A DNA stretch of 63,004 bases, filler included, from Reclinomonas americana ATCC 50394 (taxonomy: Eukaryota): NCBI GenBank assembly GCA_048213135.1. It is 7 parts of 4 records of this genome, joined end to end, with 100 filler letters (N's around TTAATTAATTAA, not from the genome) between each part and the next. Parts side by side here need not be neighbours in the genome. Positions count along the whole stretch, not along the records: positions 1 to 26,096 come from PS015827.1; positions 26,197 to 31,647 come from PS015829.1; positions 31,748 to 35,564 come from PS015830.1; positions 35,665 to 46,554 come from PS015830.1; positions 46,655 to 58,809 come from PS015830.1; positions 58,910 to 60,346 come from PS015831.1; positions 60,447 to 63,004 come from PS015831.1. One strand, 5' to 3'. This document shows positions 5,529 to 62,795 of this stretch, piece after piece (positions within the stretch are counted from its first letter, which is position 1; the number at the start of each line of letters is the position of its first letter). The position numbers were made by a program, and so were the translations under genes. A model generated the notes under the pieces. That model ran no database searches, was not told where the DNA came from, and worked only from the letters and a program-made list of their open reading frames with translations.

Positions 5529-7415
5529 TTACTCGGCCGCCGTTTTTCGCACCCACAGCTTGGCGTCCTCGAGAAGGAAGGCGCGGAACACGGTGGTCAC
5601 CAATGCTCGACTCTGCTGCGGCAGCTCTCTCACCGCCGAATACGCGAGCTCCACGTTGGCGACCTCCACCTCCAGCGCGGCCACTGTGGCGTCAAAGTAG
5701 ATCAGCACCCGTCTGACACACCTCTCCTCTCAACCTTTTCCCCTCCTCACCTACGTCAATCAGCGTGTGCAACTGCAAGTTACCGCGACAATGATGTGCA
5801 ACAAAATGCTGACCGTCTTCGCTAATGTCGACCCACGCGGCGTCCTTGATGTGGTGCACGGACGCTCCCGTCCGTGTATCCCACACCCACATTTGCCGCA
5901 CGTGCTCCGTCTGGCCACGCAGCACCAGTGAGCACAGGATCGGAAACACGAACACATCACCAAAGGGGACACTCACGCACAATCACAAACATATCGCCGC
6001 TGACCCACGACACCCACGCCACCTGCCGCACAAACACGTTAGGGGCCAGCAACAGCATTTCACACTCGAGCACTGCGCAACTGGGCTCTCGCACTCCAGA
6101 TCCGGCACACACAGCAGCTTGTCACCAGAGGCAATGTGAAACACCTCGAGCACCTTTCGGCGCGATCGTTCACCGCGCACATCCACATCGCTGACGCACG
6201 CAATCCGGGTATCATCGTGACTGAACGCAACTCCGCACCCACCAGTCGGCACATGCAGCAGCGACAGGGAGCGCGGACGTGCTCGAATGTTTGTCAAATC
6301 GACCAGACACACGTGCGGGAACCAACCCATGACAGCCAGCAGGCCAGAGCGACAACTGATGGCTGCACACTCGGGCCGAAAGGCGACATCCACTGAACCC
6401 ACGAAGCGATCCACCGACGACACCGGAAACCGATTGCGTGCCAGCCGGTACGCGACGATACCATTCTCCAGCATGAACACCACGAAGCGATTGCATGGCG
6501 AAAAGTACTTGATCGAGTGCCGCAGCCGGTACAGCGCTCGATCCGAGAACGCCTCGGCAACTCGCCCAGCACGCAGATCGACCCCAATCAGCTTGGACAG
6601 GTTTTCTTGCTGCGGGCCGACCTCCACCATCACGCAGTCGGGGCCGCCATGCGGCGCCAGACTCATGTTCACAATCGGTGAGTCGCTCAGGTCTTTCACC
6701 GCATCTCCCACACGGCGACACGGCCCCATATCCCACAGCTGGAGACCCCCGTGGATATCGCACACCGCCACGCGAGGCGTCTCTCGCTGTCGTGAGCAGA
6801 AACACAGGCGCGCAGCTGGTGGATCGCTGATGCTCATCTCTCGTGTGCGACATACAAACGGCCGGCGGCCACCAATCGTCGGGATTGCTGACGAAGACGA
6901 GATGGTGGTGCTTGGTGGTGCCGGTCGTGGTGGCGAAGGCGACGCTGCTTGCAGTGGTGGAGCTGGCGGCGGCGGCGGTGGTGGTGGTGGTGGTGGCGAC
7001 GGTGGTGGTGACGGTGCTGGTTCTGCCTCCACTGCAGGTGCAACGCGGAGACGAATGGCACCACGCAGCGGCACTGTGGGGTCCAGTACACGATCCTGAT
7101 GACGCCAGCGATCGTCAGTTTGACCCTCCATTCACAATGCATCACAATCACAATCACAAACCTTTTGCGTGATCAGAATGCGTCCTTGCACGGCCAGCGC
7201 CGCCGCCGCCGTGCGCACCGCAGGCATCAGTGCACGCCAGGCCTCTGCTGACACTCGCCGCGCCACCTCCGACGGACAACACGACTTGTGCGGTCCGCGT
7301 TCCTGCACCAGTTGCAGAATTGCCGCTTCCAGAGCCGCCTGATCACCCACTGTGCGCGAGACAGTCAACAAGCATGCTCACACAGAGAGAAAGATCGTTC
7401 TCCTCTCACGCAACT
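5529..7415 (-). CDS. DUF3253-like N-terminal domain + Pro-rich linker + WD40-like beta-propeller
   Basis: MGDQAALEAAILQLVQERGPHKSCCPSEVARR...WRALMPAVRTAA...GRILITQK/DRVLDP...RGAIRLR matches the DUF3253 pattern. WD-like segments follow (GGLQLWDM, GVAFSHDDTRIAC, MWVWDTRTG). The ATG is formed across intron 7414-7350; TAA at 5531-5529. Confidence 0.65.
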
Positions 7416-7477
7416 GTCTGTTGTGAGTCGACGCGGCGCGAAAATTCACGTCGTGTCGTGTTTTTGTCGCGAGGGTA

Positions 7478-8219
7478 ATGCACGCCGTGGATGTGGATCG
7501 CGAGGCCAAAGTCGCCGGCTGGTTCGCGCGGAATCGACACACACTGTTGCTCATGGCGTGGTATGCGTGCCACATGTGGCTGTATCATCAGCTGAGCGTG
7601 AGCATGTTTGACATGCTGGCGGAGTATCGTGAGTGGAACCGCCAGCAGCCGCGCACGCCGAGCCACATTGGTCTGGTGAGTGATCCACGCATAAGACGCG
7701 TAGCACACACGCACACACACCTGCATGCATGCTATGATTGTGACACGTGGGGTCGCACTTGTCCGGATCTTGATTTTCATGCATTGACACGTGTGTGTGG
7801 TGTCTGCAGGGCTTCATCTTCCTCATCGCCTTCATCATCAGTGCGGTGGTGTCGCTGATTGTCACTCTGATCTCTGGTCGCTGGATCAGCCCGGTTCTGT
7901 TGAATCTGGTGACGCTGTACAAGTGGCGCGAGCTGAATGCTGCGGTCGCCGCCAGCCAGTGGAGCTCGCAACTTGGCGACCTCGCCTTGGGTTCGTGCAG
8001 ACCCTCCCTCCTCCCCAGTTGCCGACTCTCCGCTCACATGCCTACCCTCTCTCTTTCCCTCCATCAGAATACGGCATGGTGCAGGTGGCTGCACTGGTCG
8101 TCACGGTGGTCAACGGACTGCGCCTGCTTGCCGGCTGGTTTGGGTGGCTGACCGCCATCTTCATGAGCGTATCGCTCTTCTTCCTGACCAGTTACATACT
8201 TGTGTTGCTCGAGGACTGA
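7478..8219 (+). CDS. Small multi-pass membrane protein of unknown function (3 exons)
   Basis: ATG 7478; GTGAGT and GTTCGT introns join hydrophobic exons (GFIFLIAFIISAVVSLIVTLISG; WLTAIFMSVSLFFLTSYILVLL); TGA 8217-8219. Confidence 0.65.
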
Positions 8220-8246
8220 GGTGAATGAAGAGCGCACAACAACTCT

Positions 8247-60318: not shown

Positions 60319-60523
60319 CTGTGCGTGTGTCGAGAGGCGCGCGTGTNNNNNNNNNNNNNNNNNNNNNNNNNNNNNNNNNNNNNNNNNNNNTTAATTAATT
60401 AANNNNNNNNNNNNNNNNNNNNNNNNNNNNNNNNNNNNNNNNNNNNCCCCTTCTCCCTCCCTCTTCTCCCTTCTCCCCCCTCCCTCCTCCCTCCTCCCTT
60501 CTCACTTCTCCTCCCCTCTTCAG

Positions 60524-61693
60524 CAACCGCTGGCGAACAACGAGCGAGGAGAAGAGGCTGCTGGAGCGCTTGTCGCACAATCACTACGAGGACGCTCGTC
60601 GGGCGGCCGAGTGCCACCGACAAGTGCGACAGAACGTGCAATCGTGGATTCGACCGGGTCTGCGCATGATTGACATTTGCGAGAGACTCGAGCAGATGAA
60701 TCGCGATCTCGTCGAGGCCGACGGTGCGTGCTGTTCATTTGCATCCTCGCGCTGCTGCTGCTGTTGCTCACCCACACTCGACAGGCCTGGAGAGGGGCAT
60801 TGCCTTCCCCACGGGCTGCTCTCTGAACAACGTGGCAGCTCACTGGACGCCCAACGGCGGCGACGAGACCGTGCTGCACGAGGACGACGTGTGCAAGATC
60901 GATTTCGGCACACACGTCAATGGTCGCATCATTGACTGTGCCTTCACCGTGGCTTTCAATCCGCGTTACGAGCCACTGATGAACGCCGTTCGTGAGGCCA
61001 CCAACACGGGCATTCGCGAGGCGGGCATTGATGTGCGCCTGTGCGACGTGGGTGAGGCGATTCAGGAGGTGATGGAGTCGCACGAGGTGGAGCTCGACGG
61101 CAAGATGTACCAGGGTAAGTTGGGATACAAACCACGCGCTTCTTGTCGTTCTCCCTTCCCCCCTTCCCCCCTTTCCCTTCCCCCTTCTCCCTTTCCCTCA
61201 CATCCGCATTGCAGTCAAATGCGTCCGCAACCTCAACGGCCACTCGATCGAGCCGTACCGCATTCACGCCGGCAAGAGTGTGCCGATTGTGCGTGGTGGC
61301 GACGGCACCAAGATGGAGGAGGGCGAGTTCTACGCCATTGAGACATTCGGCACCACCGGCCGCGGCTACGTTGTCGACGATCTCGAGTGCAGTCACTACA
61401 TGCTCAACTACCAGCACAACCCCGACCCACAGCCACCAAGAGTGCAACGCACACGGCAGCTCTACAACACCATCCGCAAGCACTTTGGCACACTGGCCTG
61501 GTGCCGGCGATGGCTGGACCGTGTCGGCGAGGAGCGCTACTTGCTGGCCCTCAAGCAGCTGGTCGACAGCGAGATTGTGACTCCGTATCCGCCGCTGTGC
61601 GACGTCAAGGGCAGCTATGTCGCCCAGTACGAGCATACCATTGTGTTGCGGCCAACATGCAAGGAGGTGATTTCACGCGGCGACGACTACTAA
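60524..61693 (+). CDS. METAP2: Methionine aminopeptidase 2, 5'-partial
   Basis: [67 protein letters not shown]. Confidence 0.97.
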
Positions 61694-61776
61694 TCTTCTT
61701 CCTCTCCCCGACTCTCTGTCGTGTTCCCGAAGATAAAACGTCGTTCATTTGCATTGTGCTGTCCTGCTGCTTCCAA

Positions 61777-62795
61777 ATGCTTTCATCACTGCGAGCGCTG
61801 CCACGCAGCCTGGTGCACGCCTGCACTGTGCGACTGCCTGCACCACTGGCAAGCAGCGGCAGCAGCAGCAGCATCCGACCCATTCCATCGCTGCTCATCG
61901 CTGCACCATCGCCTCCTCGCATCGCATCTCCCGTGCTGCTCCGTGTGTTCTCCACGCAGTCGCCCCCGCCCGCTCCCTCACCTCCGCCTCCCGAAGATGC
62001 CGCAGAGTCGCCCGGTGACTCCTCCATATGGACACTGCCCAACGCCATCACCCTCGGTCGCATCGCTCTCACGCCGCTCATTGGATGGTGCGTGTTGCAC
62101 GACAAGTTTGTGGCCGCAGCCGCCGGCTTTGTCGCTGCGGGAGTGTCGGACTATGTTGCGTGCATCCTCATCCTCATCATCATCAGCAGGCGCACACGTG
62201 TGCATTGCTCACTGTGTGTATACGCGCATAAGATTGACGGCTATGTGGCCAAGAGATTCAACATGAAGAGCATCCTCGGTTCCTACTTGGACCCGCTGGC
62301 CGACAAGGTGCTCGTGTCGACGTTGACGCTGTCGCTGGCGTTTGCCGGCATCTTGCCGGGCTTGTTGGTGTTTGTCATTGTCGGTCGCGATGTGCTGCTC
62401 ATTGCCGGAACGGCGATTCTGCGATACACCACCATGCCGCGACCTGTTGCGTGATCCATCCTCTTGTCATTACCCCCTCCTGTTGTGGTCTCACTCTCTT
62501 CGGTGCGCAGGTCACGCTGAAACGCTTCTTCCAAGTCTCCGATGTCAAGGCATTCGAGATCCGACCGACGTGGTTGAGCAAGATGAACACGGCGGGCCAG
62601 CTCATGCTGGTCGCTGTCGCGCTGCTGCACGGCGCCACGGGTCTCACAGTGCCGCCACCAGCGGTGCTGACGGCCGCCGGCTGGGCCGTCGGCATCACCA
62701 CCTTTGCCTCTGGGTGGGACTACCTCACCATCAGCACGGGTGTGCGCACGCTGAGAAAAGCACCACCACCGCCGACTCCACCAGCACCCAGTTGA
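61777..62795 (+). CDS. CRLS1: Cardiolipin synthase (CDP-alcohol phosphatidyltransferase type)
   Basis: Presequence, [59 protein letters not shown]. Confidence 0.9.

Follow-up and report, generated by a model that had tools for sequence, protein, structure and literature searches.

What reads a 5′ splice site that fits the 5′ end of the small nuclear RNA (snRNA) U1 badly? This question is raised by a stretch of DNA from Reclinomonas americana ATCC 50394 (GenBank assembly GCA_048213135.1), analysed here as one window of 63,004 bases (~55% G+C, with several N stretches), in which eukaryotic genes lie densely on both strands and carry introns of 55-90 nt. GTTGCGT was the commonest single donor in the window, standing at about one intron in three. 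The GTTGCGT sites were real, sequence-specific, and strand-bound, and comparison of the encoded proteins with their homologues and with Pfam profiles indicated, with a probability of about 0.9, that the introns are real and are cut at the first G. Given such introns, we tentatively propose that the reader is an RNA complementary to GUUGCGU, a reading to which we assign a probability of roughly 0.4.

Frequency and strand of the GTTGCGT sites

The sequence-only reading of this window had listed 31 GTTGCG(T/C) sites as a second class of donor, and all 31 were present on the strand given, 28 as GTTGCGT and three as GTTGCGC (19072, 23010, and 38104). Its four variants (GTCACGT at 42988, GTCGCGT at 19824, GTTTCGT at 53405, and GTTACGC at 42358) also read as claimed, and most of the claimed sites were followed by a CTNAY branch-like motif and a YAG 55-90 nt downstream. 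Counted on both strands, GTTGCGT occurred 49 times, against 15.43 ± 3.52 in 100 dinucleotide shuffles with a maximum of 23; no shuffle reached 49. The heptamer is thus very unlikely to be a by-product of TG/CG-rich sequence. The excess of ~34 copies agrees with the count of plausible donors, made up of the 28 listed and the ~7 added in this study.

Among the patterns tried with 60 shuffles, the exact heptamer alone was enriched (3.0-fold). GTTGCGC was found 29 times (21.7 expected), GTCGCGT 12 (19.6), GTAGCGT 2 (4.4), GTGGCGT 22 (16.1), GTTGAGT 7 (9.7), GTTAAGT 1 (1.7), and GTTGTGT 14 (14.8), and GTTACGT was likewise at or below the shuffle expectation. At position +3, only T was enriched (3.0-fold, compared with 0.6 for C, 0.45 for A, and 1.4 for G). 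The inclusion of GTTGCGC in the class did not hold, as this form was not enriched and its sense:antisense ratio was 7:9.

The surroundings of the heptamer were also those of introns. A CTNAY motif followed by YAG within 40-130 nt was observed after 34 of 48 GTTGCGT sites, whereas for GT heptamers as a whole the figure was 2648 of 7938 (33%). Under a strict test for intron-like surroundings, which asked for 50-100 nt, YAG, a branch motif, and 40 or more open codons to either side, 25 of 49 GTTGCGT sites passed, as did 890 of 7993 other GT sites (11%) and 3 of 29 GTTGCGC sites. For a strand map and an unbiased hint, we used our own donor-agnostic gene finder, which is noisy and found only about one in two of the introns that homology later fixed. 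Within its gene calls, GTTGCGT lay 24 times in sense and twice in antisense (p = 1e-5), with 23 copies outside the calls, and its own commonest donor was GTTGCGT (10 of 124 and 8 of 66). In addition, ~7 extra donor-like GTTGCGT sites passed the strict test (14434, 50810, 51516, and 55109 on the minus strand; 26668, 33411, and 46365 on the plus strand). At least five copies are non-donors: those at 56110 and 37408 on the minus strand lie within Pfam-matched exons, and those at 16174 (plus), 26345 (minus), and 27876 (minus) are antisense.

The preference extended little beyond the seven letters. The base after the heptamer at all 49 copies was G 24 times, C 16 times, T nine times, and A never, the base rate of A after GT being 10%. 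G at position −1 was found at 2 of 39 GTTGCGT sites, compared with a base rate of 15.7% before GTT, a marginal depletion (p = 0.04).

Position of the cut

In all, 19 introns were fixed by homology or by Pfam coordinates: seven in a HemW-like radical SAM gene (40193-41934, plus strand; the site at 41560 included), five in a carnitine/acylcarnitine-carrier-like gene (42432-43631, plus), two in a cardiolipin-synthase-like gene (from about 62023, plus), two in a DHHC palmitoyltransferase gene (about 20956-21472, plus), two in a DEAD-box helicase gene (54620-57131, minus), and one in a SAYSvFN gene (19380-20175, minus). Here and below, gene labels come from Pfam scans of open frames or from homology, and their places are approximate. 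Homologues were fetched with single-exon queries (20 for HemW, 18 for the carrier, and 45 of 150 for cardiolipin synthase, where 72 had 240-400 amino acids and the first 45 of these in id order were taken) and aligned with our own spliced aligner (profile to DNA, GT/GC-AG introns). Then, all boundary pairs that lay within ±12 nt and preserved the frame, with any dinucleotides, were scored by a hidden Markov model of the homologues.

The spliced alignment of HemW gave introns with donors at 40536 (GTGCGT), 40808 (GTTTGC), 40974 (GTCAAT), 41106 (GTTGCGT), 41277 (GTAGTG), and 41425 (GTTGCGT), after a questionable 148-nt first intron with its GC donor at 40288 had been discarded. That of the carrier gave 42472 (GTGAGC), 42584 (GTTTGC), 42743 (GTTGCGT), 42988 (GTCACGT), and 43340 (GTGCGT), and that of cardiolipin synthase gave 62155 and 62446, both GTTGCGT.

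The first GT had been favoured from motif spacing, and the boundary scan agreed: GT(+1)...AG was the best or tied-best pair at five of six GTTGCGT introns and the sole top pair with canonical dinucleotides, and a cut at the internal GC (+4) cost 4.2, 6.7, 5.8, 6.1, and 4.8 bits at 41106, 41425, 42743, 62155, and 62446, respectively. In HemW, the GT+1/AG boundary of the 56-nt phase 2 intron 41106-41161 scored 305.7 bits compared with 301.5 for GC+4, and that of the 74-nt phase 2 intron 41425-41498, which lies within the GVGPG|AHS motif, scored 305.7 compared with 299.0; none of 209 alternatives scored higher at either. For the carrier intron 42743-42807 (65 nt, phase 0), the scores were 403.0 and 397.2 bits, with none of 124 alternatives higher. 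In cardiolipin synthase, the intron 62446-62510 (65 nt, phase 0) gave 271.8 and 267.0 bits, with none of 172 higher, and the intron 62155-62232 (78 nt, phase 0) gave 271.8 and 265.7 bits among 204 alternatives, of which four non-GT/AG slides gained 0.6 bit. The +6 GT cuts also scored lower at all five introns, and ordinary introns used as controls showed the same loss of 4-8 bits when moved by 3. The sixth site, at 41560-41619 in a poorly conserved stretch of HemW, was ambiguous: 45 of 206 alternatives scored higher, and the aligner preferred a GC donor at 41542.

The intron 62155-62232 is free of stop codons, and its 78 nt are divisible by 3; when it was retained, the score fell by 20.7 bits to 251.1. 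Its homology-supported acceptor (62226-62232, plus) is AAG and not the usual CAG or TAG.

Pfam coordinates placed the cut in the DHHC gene, where the 76-nt phase 2 intron 21165-21240 follows profile position 26 as the last full residue and the exon 21332-21472 starts at position 32. The five residues between are supplied by a split codon and a 13-nt micro-exon (21241-21253, plus; predicted from sequence and Pfam coordinates), which has the GTTGCGT intron before it and a GTGCGT intron (21254-21331) after it. This spacing fits the first GT only, because the +4 cut would give six residues. The micro-exon encodes H-CVKR with the split codon, within the cysteine-rich motif of DHHC. Of the spacings on which the earlier choice of cut had rested, GPG-AHSR (41425), D-x2-DG (62155), and C-x2-C-x2-C (21165) were confirmed. 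Furthermore, at 25832 a stop codon would arise from the GC+4 cut in the probable, predicted frame.

Two of the variant donors behaved in the same way. The GTCACGT intron of the carrier (42988-43056, plus, 69 nt) scored 403.0 bits with no alternative higher, the +3 cut giving 398.9, and at the GTCGCGT intron of the SAYSvFN gene (19761-19824, minus, 64 nt) profile positions 39 and 40 were contiguous at the GT+1 boundary. Overall, intron removal gave a protein collinear with its homologues in eight cases: profile scores showed this for five GTTGCGT introns and for one of the variants, and Pfam coordinates for one GTTGCGT intron and another variant.

Donor modes and a proposed reader of the heptamer

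GTTGCGT accounted for 7 of the 19 fixed introns (6 of 18 without 41560), in line with the earlier description of a major class, and all seven read GTTGCGTG. The remaining fixed donors were three GTGCGT, two one-position-shifted variants (GTCACGT and GTCGCGT), and seven degenerate sites, which include those of the DEAD-box gene at 56249 (GTGCAC) and 55455 (GTTTGT). The ordinary donors had been described as GTGCGT and similar words with G at +5; GTGCGT donors do exist, but the others were more degenerate than described (GTTTGC, GTCAAT, GTAGTG, GTGAGC, and GTGCAC). The exon side divided them sharply: an exon-end AG preceded none of the 12 CGT-block donors, among them GTGCGT at 40536, 43340, and 21254, compared with six of the seven others (Fisher p = 2.6e-4). 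This split argues for two kinds of donor, which appear to represent two modes, an exon-anchored one in which AG/GT is followed by almost anything, and an intron-anchored one dominated by a single heptamer.

The 3′ halves of the introns were alike. All 30 GTTGCG[TC] introns with an assigned acceptor ended in AG (23 CAG, six TAG, and one AAG), and CAG was the acceptor in the 11 other fixed introns. CTNAY was present in 26 of the 30, with the branch A 12-24 nt from the 3′ end (17.5 nt vs 16.5 nt in the 11 others), and the branch motifs ranked CTCAC > CTGAC > CTCAT in both sets. The median length was 69 nt vs 64 nt, and the G+C content 0.54 vs 0.56. By these features, the GTTGCGT introns look like short GT-AG introns of an ordinary U2-type spliceosome that use a second, unusual kind of donor.

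U12-type introns have the donor RTATCCTT and the branch TCCTTAAC, and thus a rigid 5′ splice site of seven to eight letters without exon consensus beside degenerate major-type donors. The window is similar in setting an invariant donor beside degenerate ones, but differs in that the introns with the invariant donor share their branch and 3′ end with the rest. An assignment to the U12 type was rejected, since the donor is GTTGCGT and the branch is CTCAC or CTGAC as in the other introns, and not TCCTTAAC.

The pairing of the donors with the canonical U1 5′ end AUACUUACCUG was calculated with ViennaRNA duplexfold, which allows bulges and loops. On average, the 28 GTTGCGT donors paired at −1.0 kcal/mol, random GT sites of the window at −2.6, and the 11 other fixed donors at −5.8. 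It had been noted that GTTGCGT carries the GCGT motif of the usual donors one base further downstream, and this description stands, with T alone enriched at +3. Plain shifted or bulged pairing to ordinary U1, one of the explanations offered earlier for this displacement, was not supported by the calculation, the helix being weaker than at random GT sites, and thus explains the heptamer poorly; the other explanation offered, a variant snRNA, may still apply. GUUGAGU (−3.8 kcal/mol) and GUUAAGU (−4.5 kcal/mol) pair better with AUACUUACCUG in the shifted register, yet neither was enriched.

The frequency of the unshifted form was also informative. The strand excess of GTGCGT was only 32:18, which corresponds to roughly 10-14 donors, and in the strict test 13 of 117 copies passed, equal to the base rate; GTTGCGT, with ~34 donors, outnumbers GTGCGT donors about 3:1. 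Because of this ratio, the heptamer looks like the primary optimum of its reader rather than a displaced copy or a tolerated deviation. The raw GTGCGT count is inflated by tandem GTGCGT/GTGC runs, for example at 17765-17778 and 45104-45115.

In the reading that we prefer, the intron-anchored donors would be read by pairing to an RNA with the stretch ACGCAAC, complementary to GUUGCGU. Either U1 itself would be altered at its 5′ end, or a further RNA resembling U1 would serve as this reader. With its ACCUG part unchanged, the reader would still read the AG/GU donors, and GUGCGU donors would pair with it through one bulged base. The heptamer donors work without the exon-end AG on which the degenerate donors (AG/GUNNGN) rely. 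With the hypothetical reader AUACGCAACCUG, the other fixed donors reached −7.3 kcal/mol, compared with −4.8 for random sites. A precedent is known from Entamoeba, where the donor is GUUUGUU and U1 reads AACAAAC (bioRxiv 10.1101/2022.06.08.495308). Entamoeba shares with the window a rigid seven-letter donor that starts with GUU and misfits ACUUAC, with a changed U1 pairing stretch as the proposed solution. In contrast, Entamoeba is intron-poor and has the motif in 88-90% of introns, while the window is intron-rich and has it in about one-third, together with a larger degenerate AG/GU set. A literature search, judged in part by title and abstract and not reaching subscription journals or any genome paper of the organism, turned up no paper in which GTTGCGT or GUUGCGU serves as a splice signal.

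Several points weigh against such a reader. The energy of the heptamer with an ACGCAAC reader is circular, and all counts come from one 63-kb window, in which 19 introns are fixed. Random sites reached the mean of the 11 other donors in 7% of cases with canonical U1 and in 12.5-15.7% with the hypothetical readers; canonical U1 thus separates these donors slightly better, which fits the presence of a normal U1. Similarly, candidate AG/GT donors had G at +5 in 59% of 34 cases compared with 36% of 315 failed sites, a preference expected of a normal U1 or U6. The U1 pairing stretch is standard in Mamiellales, whose donors are GYGCGY, and in Thecamonas, with C at +4 (bioRxiv 10.1101/2022.06.08.495308), so a GCG-rich donor need not mean a changed U1. 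Rfam searches of the window at gathering thresholds and at E ≤ 1 detected no snRNA, only weak microRNA-like hairpin matches.

A more specific version seems unlikely: two 5′ splice-site systems would share one U2-type spliceosome, a normal U1 serving AG/GU and a U1 paralogue or other small RNA bearing ACGCAAC serving GUUGCGU. If true, this would be a third class of intron beside the U2-type and U12-type, differing at the 5′ end only.

The rival that survived best keeps the introns, their cut site, and a standard U1, which would read the GCGU block one base further downstream through a register that is shifted or has a +2/+3 bulge. Additional help would come from whatever lets GCG-rich donors function in lineages with a normal U1, be it proteins such as U1C or Luc7, or later checks by U6, U5, or Prp8. 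We consider it possible, though doubtful. GTTGCGT is G/GTGCGT with one letter changed or added, the GTGCGT donors of the fixed set exist and share the missing exon AG, and the enrichment of T alone at +3 would fit pairing of that U. Shifted and bulged registers have been proven in human cells, where 68 +2/+3-bulge 5′ splice sites are predicted (Roca and Krainer; Tan et al. 2016, PMC4856993); like the sites here, these consist of GU and an extra pyrimidine followed by the usual +3 block, and are cleaved at the first GU. Mamiellales and Thecamonas, with their standard U1, support this rival. Mamiellales, including Micromonas, have canonical introns with an AG/GTGCGT or GYGCGY donor and an NCTGAC branch (PMC3879977), and thus resemble the window in a GCG-type donor, a CTGAC-like branch, and a preference unexplained by U1 complementarity; they differ in having no extra T, an exon AG in the consensus, and few introns per gene. 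The energies, however, speak against this rival, since predicted pairing to AUACUUACCUG in any register is weaker than at random GT sites and the invariant C at +5 gains nothing with a normal U1. GTTGAGT and GTTAAGT should be equal or better but are unenriched, and the shifted form outnumbers the unshifted one. Moreover, the human bulge sites are rare and pair well with a normal U1, while the exact heptamer here marks about one-third of introns and pairs poorly; all validated noncanonical registers in human total 1.5% of 201,541 sites (PMC4856993).

It is rather improbable that the heptamer is read without U1-type pairing, by a sequence-specific RNA-binding protein or directly by the tri-snRNP (small nuclear ribonucleoprotein). 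Such a reader would suit a motif that is all-or-none across seven letters, fits canonical U1 badly, and has no signal on the exon side, but the 3′ halves are ordinary and no candidate factor is known.

A cut at the internal GC (+4) or the second GT (+6), which would make the donor an ordinary GCGT- or GT-type one, is very improbable. GC-AG introns occur in many eukaryotes and a +4 cut keeps the frame, but it loses 4.2-6.7 bits at five introns, the best +5-shifted cuts lose as well, and the DHHC spacing and the stop codon created at 25832 point the same way.

There is similarly little to be said for copies of a mobile intron family (introners) that keep the end of their element. An exact terminus common to the introns and an exon side without consensus would be expected of introners; however, when 37 introns were compared all against all in matched register, identity from +8 to +32 was 26.7%, and 25.7% when shuffled, the longest-common-word distribution was near that of the shuffled set apart from one pair at 18, and lengths ranged from 56 to 89 nt. 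As no sequence is common past +7, the GTTGCGT introns are not a repeat family. In Micromonas introner families a typical donor is common as well, but the similarity runs along the length (PMC3879977), while here nothing is common beyond the seven letters. The BOC1 introns of Mamiellales were also rejected as a model, being AT-rich and without a branch motif (PMC3879977), unlike the introns of the window.

That the heptamer merely follows from TG/CG-rich composition and marks no splice sites can practically be dismissed. Although (GT)n and GC-rich words abound in the window, no shuffle reached the observed count, the strand ratio is 24:2, and six introns have homology support.

If the pattern is genome-wide, a heptamer that fits standard U1 badly would mark about one-third of the introns in an intron-rich organism, beside degenerate donors. 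Such a genome would be a natural system for 5′ splice-site choice under weak or re-tuned U1 pairing, and would let the co-evolution of U1 and donor be asked outside intron-poor lineages. For annotation, gene finders tuned to G at +5 will overlook GTTGCGT donors or put them in the wrong place, and will leave stop-free introns with a multiple-of-3 length, such as 62155-62232, within predicted proteins.

Other donor sites, genes, and minor features

The other listed sites are described here with their predicted introns. An exon-bounded Pfam scan of 67 pieces was informative for U-box, Ufd2P_core, Amidohydro_2, DHHC, PPP1R21_C, Helicase_C, and PRK, and gave no match for the pieces at 9739, 10945, 17891, 25832, and 53200. 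In the UFD2-like U-box ligase gene (8164-11900, minus strand), a U-box match over positions 6-56 ends at the last residue before the donor of the 63-nt intron 8300-8362. Three further introns of this gene passed the strict test: 9573-9635, for which an acceptor was predicted at 63, 67, or 83 nt and downstream of which Ufd2P_core resumes, 9665-9739 (75 nt), and 10880-10945 (66 nt). A search with the open reading frame (ORF) 8164-9393 found no homologue of this gene, because that ORF is mostly non-coding.

In the Amidohydro_2 gene (16866-17825, minus), the exon upstream of the phase 1 intron 17000-17066 (67 nt) ends at profile position 246 of 289 and the junction reads FGTD/HPFF; the downstream exon had no Pfam match. 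In a uridine-kinase-like (PRK) gene, the exon upstream of the GTTGCGC intron 22938-23010 (minus, 73 nt) ends at PRK profile position 137, and in the PPP1R21-like gene (about 35064-35459, plus), position 118 of PPP1R21_C falls at the first residue of the exon downstream of the 65-nt intron 35254-35318 (plus). Both introns passed the strict test. The intron 13591-13662 (minus, 72 nt) of the leucine-rich-repeat/F-box gene (13616-16509, minus) also passed; its junction reads LDIS/RNLL, which fits the leucine-rich-repeat pattern.

The strict test was further passed on the minus strand by 12677-12747 (71 nt), 19160-19235 (76 nt), 22739-22827 (89 nt), and 49887-49965 (79 nt), and on the plus strand by 24760-24830 (71 nt), which the donor-agnostic gene finder also picked, 25832-25900 (69 nt, phase 1), and 26947-27015 (69 nt). 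The seven added candidate introns, all of which passed, are 14375-14434, 50746-50810, 51447-51516, and 55053-55109 on the minus strand and 26668-26743, 33411-33472, and 46365-46424 on the plus strand; 33411-33472 and 51447-51516 were picked by the gene finder, and 55053-55109 lies in the DEAD-box gene, where Helicase_C ends upstream of the donor.

Other listed sites were placed from sequence alone. On the minus strand, these are the donor of 7339-7414 (76 nt), which failed the strict test because its branch reads TTGAC, that of 17831-17891, with a predicted acceptor at 54, 61, or 67 nt, and the GTTGCGC site of 19015-19072, whose putative intron enters an N stretch. On the plus strand, they are 25078-25146 (69 nt), 27545-27615 (71 nt), 28553-28614 (62 nt), and 53200-53264 (65 nt), the last in the CDGSH gene (53070-53552, plus) with flanks free of Pfam matches.

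Two predicted introns of the carnitine acyltransferase gene (36700-38943, minus) passed the strict test: the GTTGCGC intron 38042-38104 (minus, 63 nt) and the GTTGCGT intron 38321-38392 (minus, 72 nt), the latter in a poorly conserved region. Aligned to solved CPT2, the former stands out as inserted sequence with no counterpart. When the ORF was compared with solved structures, both fell in loops too variable to place a boundary. Like 62155-62232 on the plus strand, both lack in-frame stop codons and are divisible by 3 in length, and long ORFs such as 37558-38943 and 61342-62451 continue through introns of this kind.

The window also contains genes for Gpi16 (29397-31370, minus), a histidine phosphatase (57469-58623, minus), and an M24 peptidase (60700-61338, plus). 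The closest protein matches of the window genes were only 50-60% identical, with fungi, an ichthyosporean, an echinoderm, and a stramenopile among the sources.

The commonest heptamers of the window were (GT)n/(CA)n and (GA)n/(CT)n words, with up to 178 copies. Pairs of runs of exactly 44 N with 12 bases between them were found at 26097-26196, 31648-31747, 35565-35664, 46555-46654, 58810-58909, and 60347-60446, and N runs of 261-912 also occur; all of these look like masking or assembly gaps and not biology. The stretches 15929-16077, within the region of the leucine-rich-repeat/F-box gene, and 39744-39915 gave sub-threshold Rfam matches to microRNA precursors on both strands (35.6/34 bits and 33.4/29.8 bits, respectively), which suggests long hairpin-forming inverted repeats. 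Finally, the carnitine acyltransferase gene lies ~3.5 kb from the carrier-like gene, with only the HemW-like gene between them, and the two may be functionally linked neighbours.

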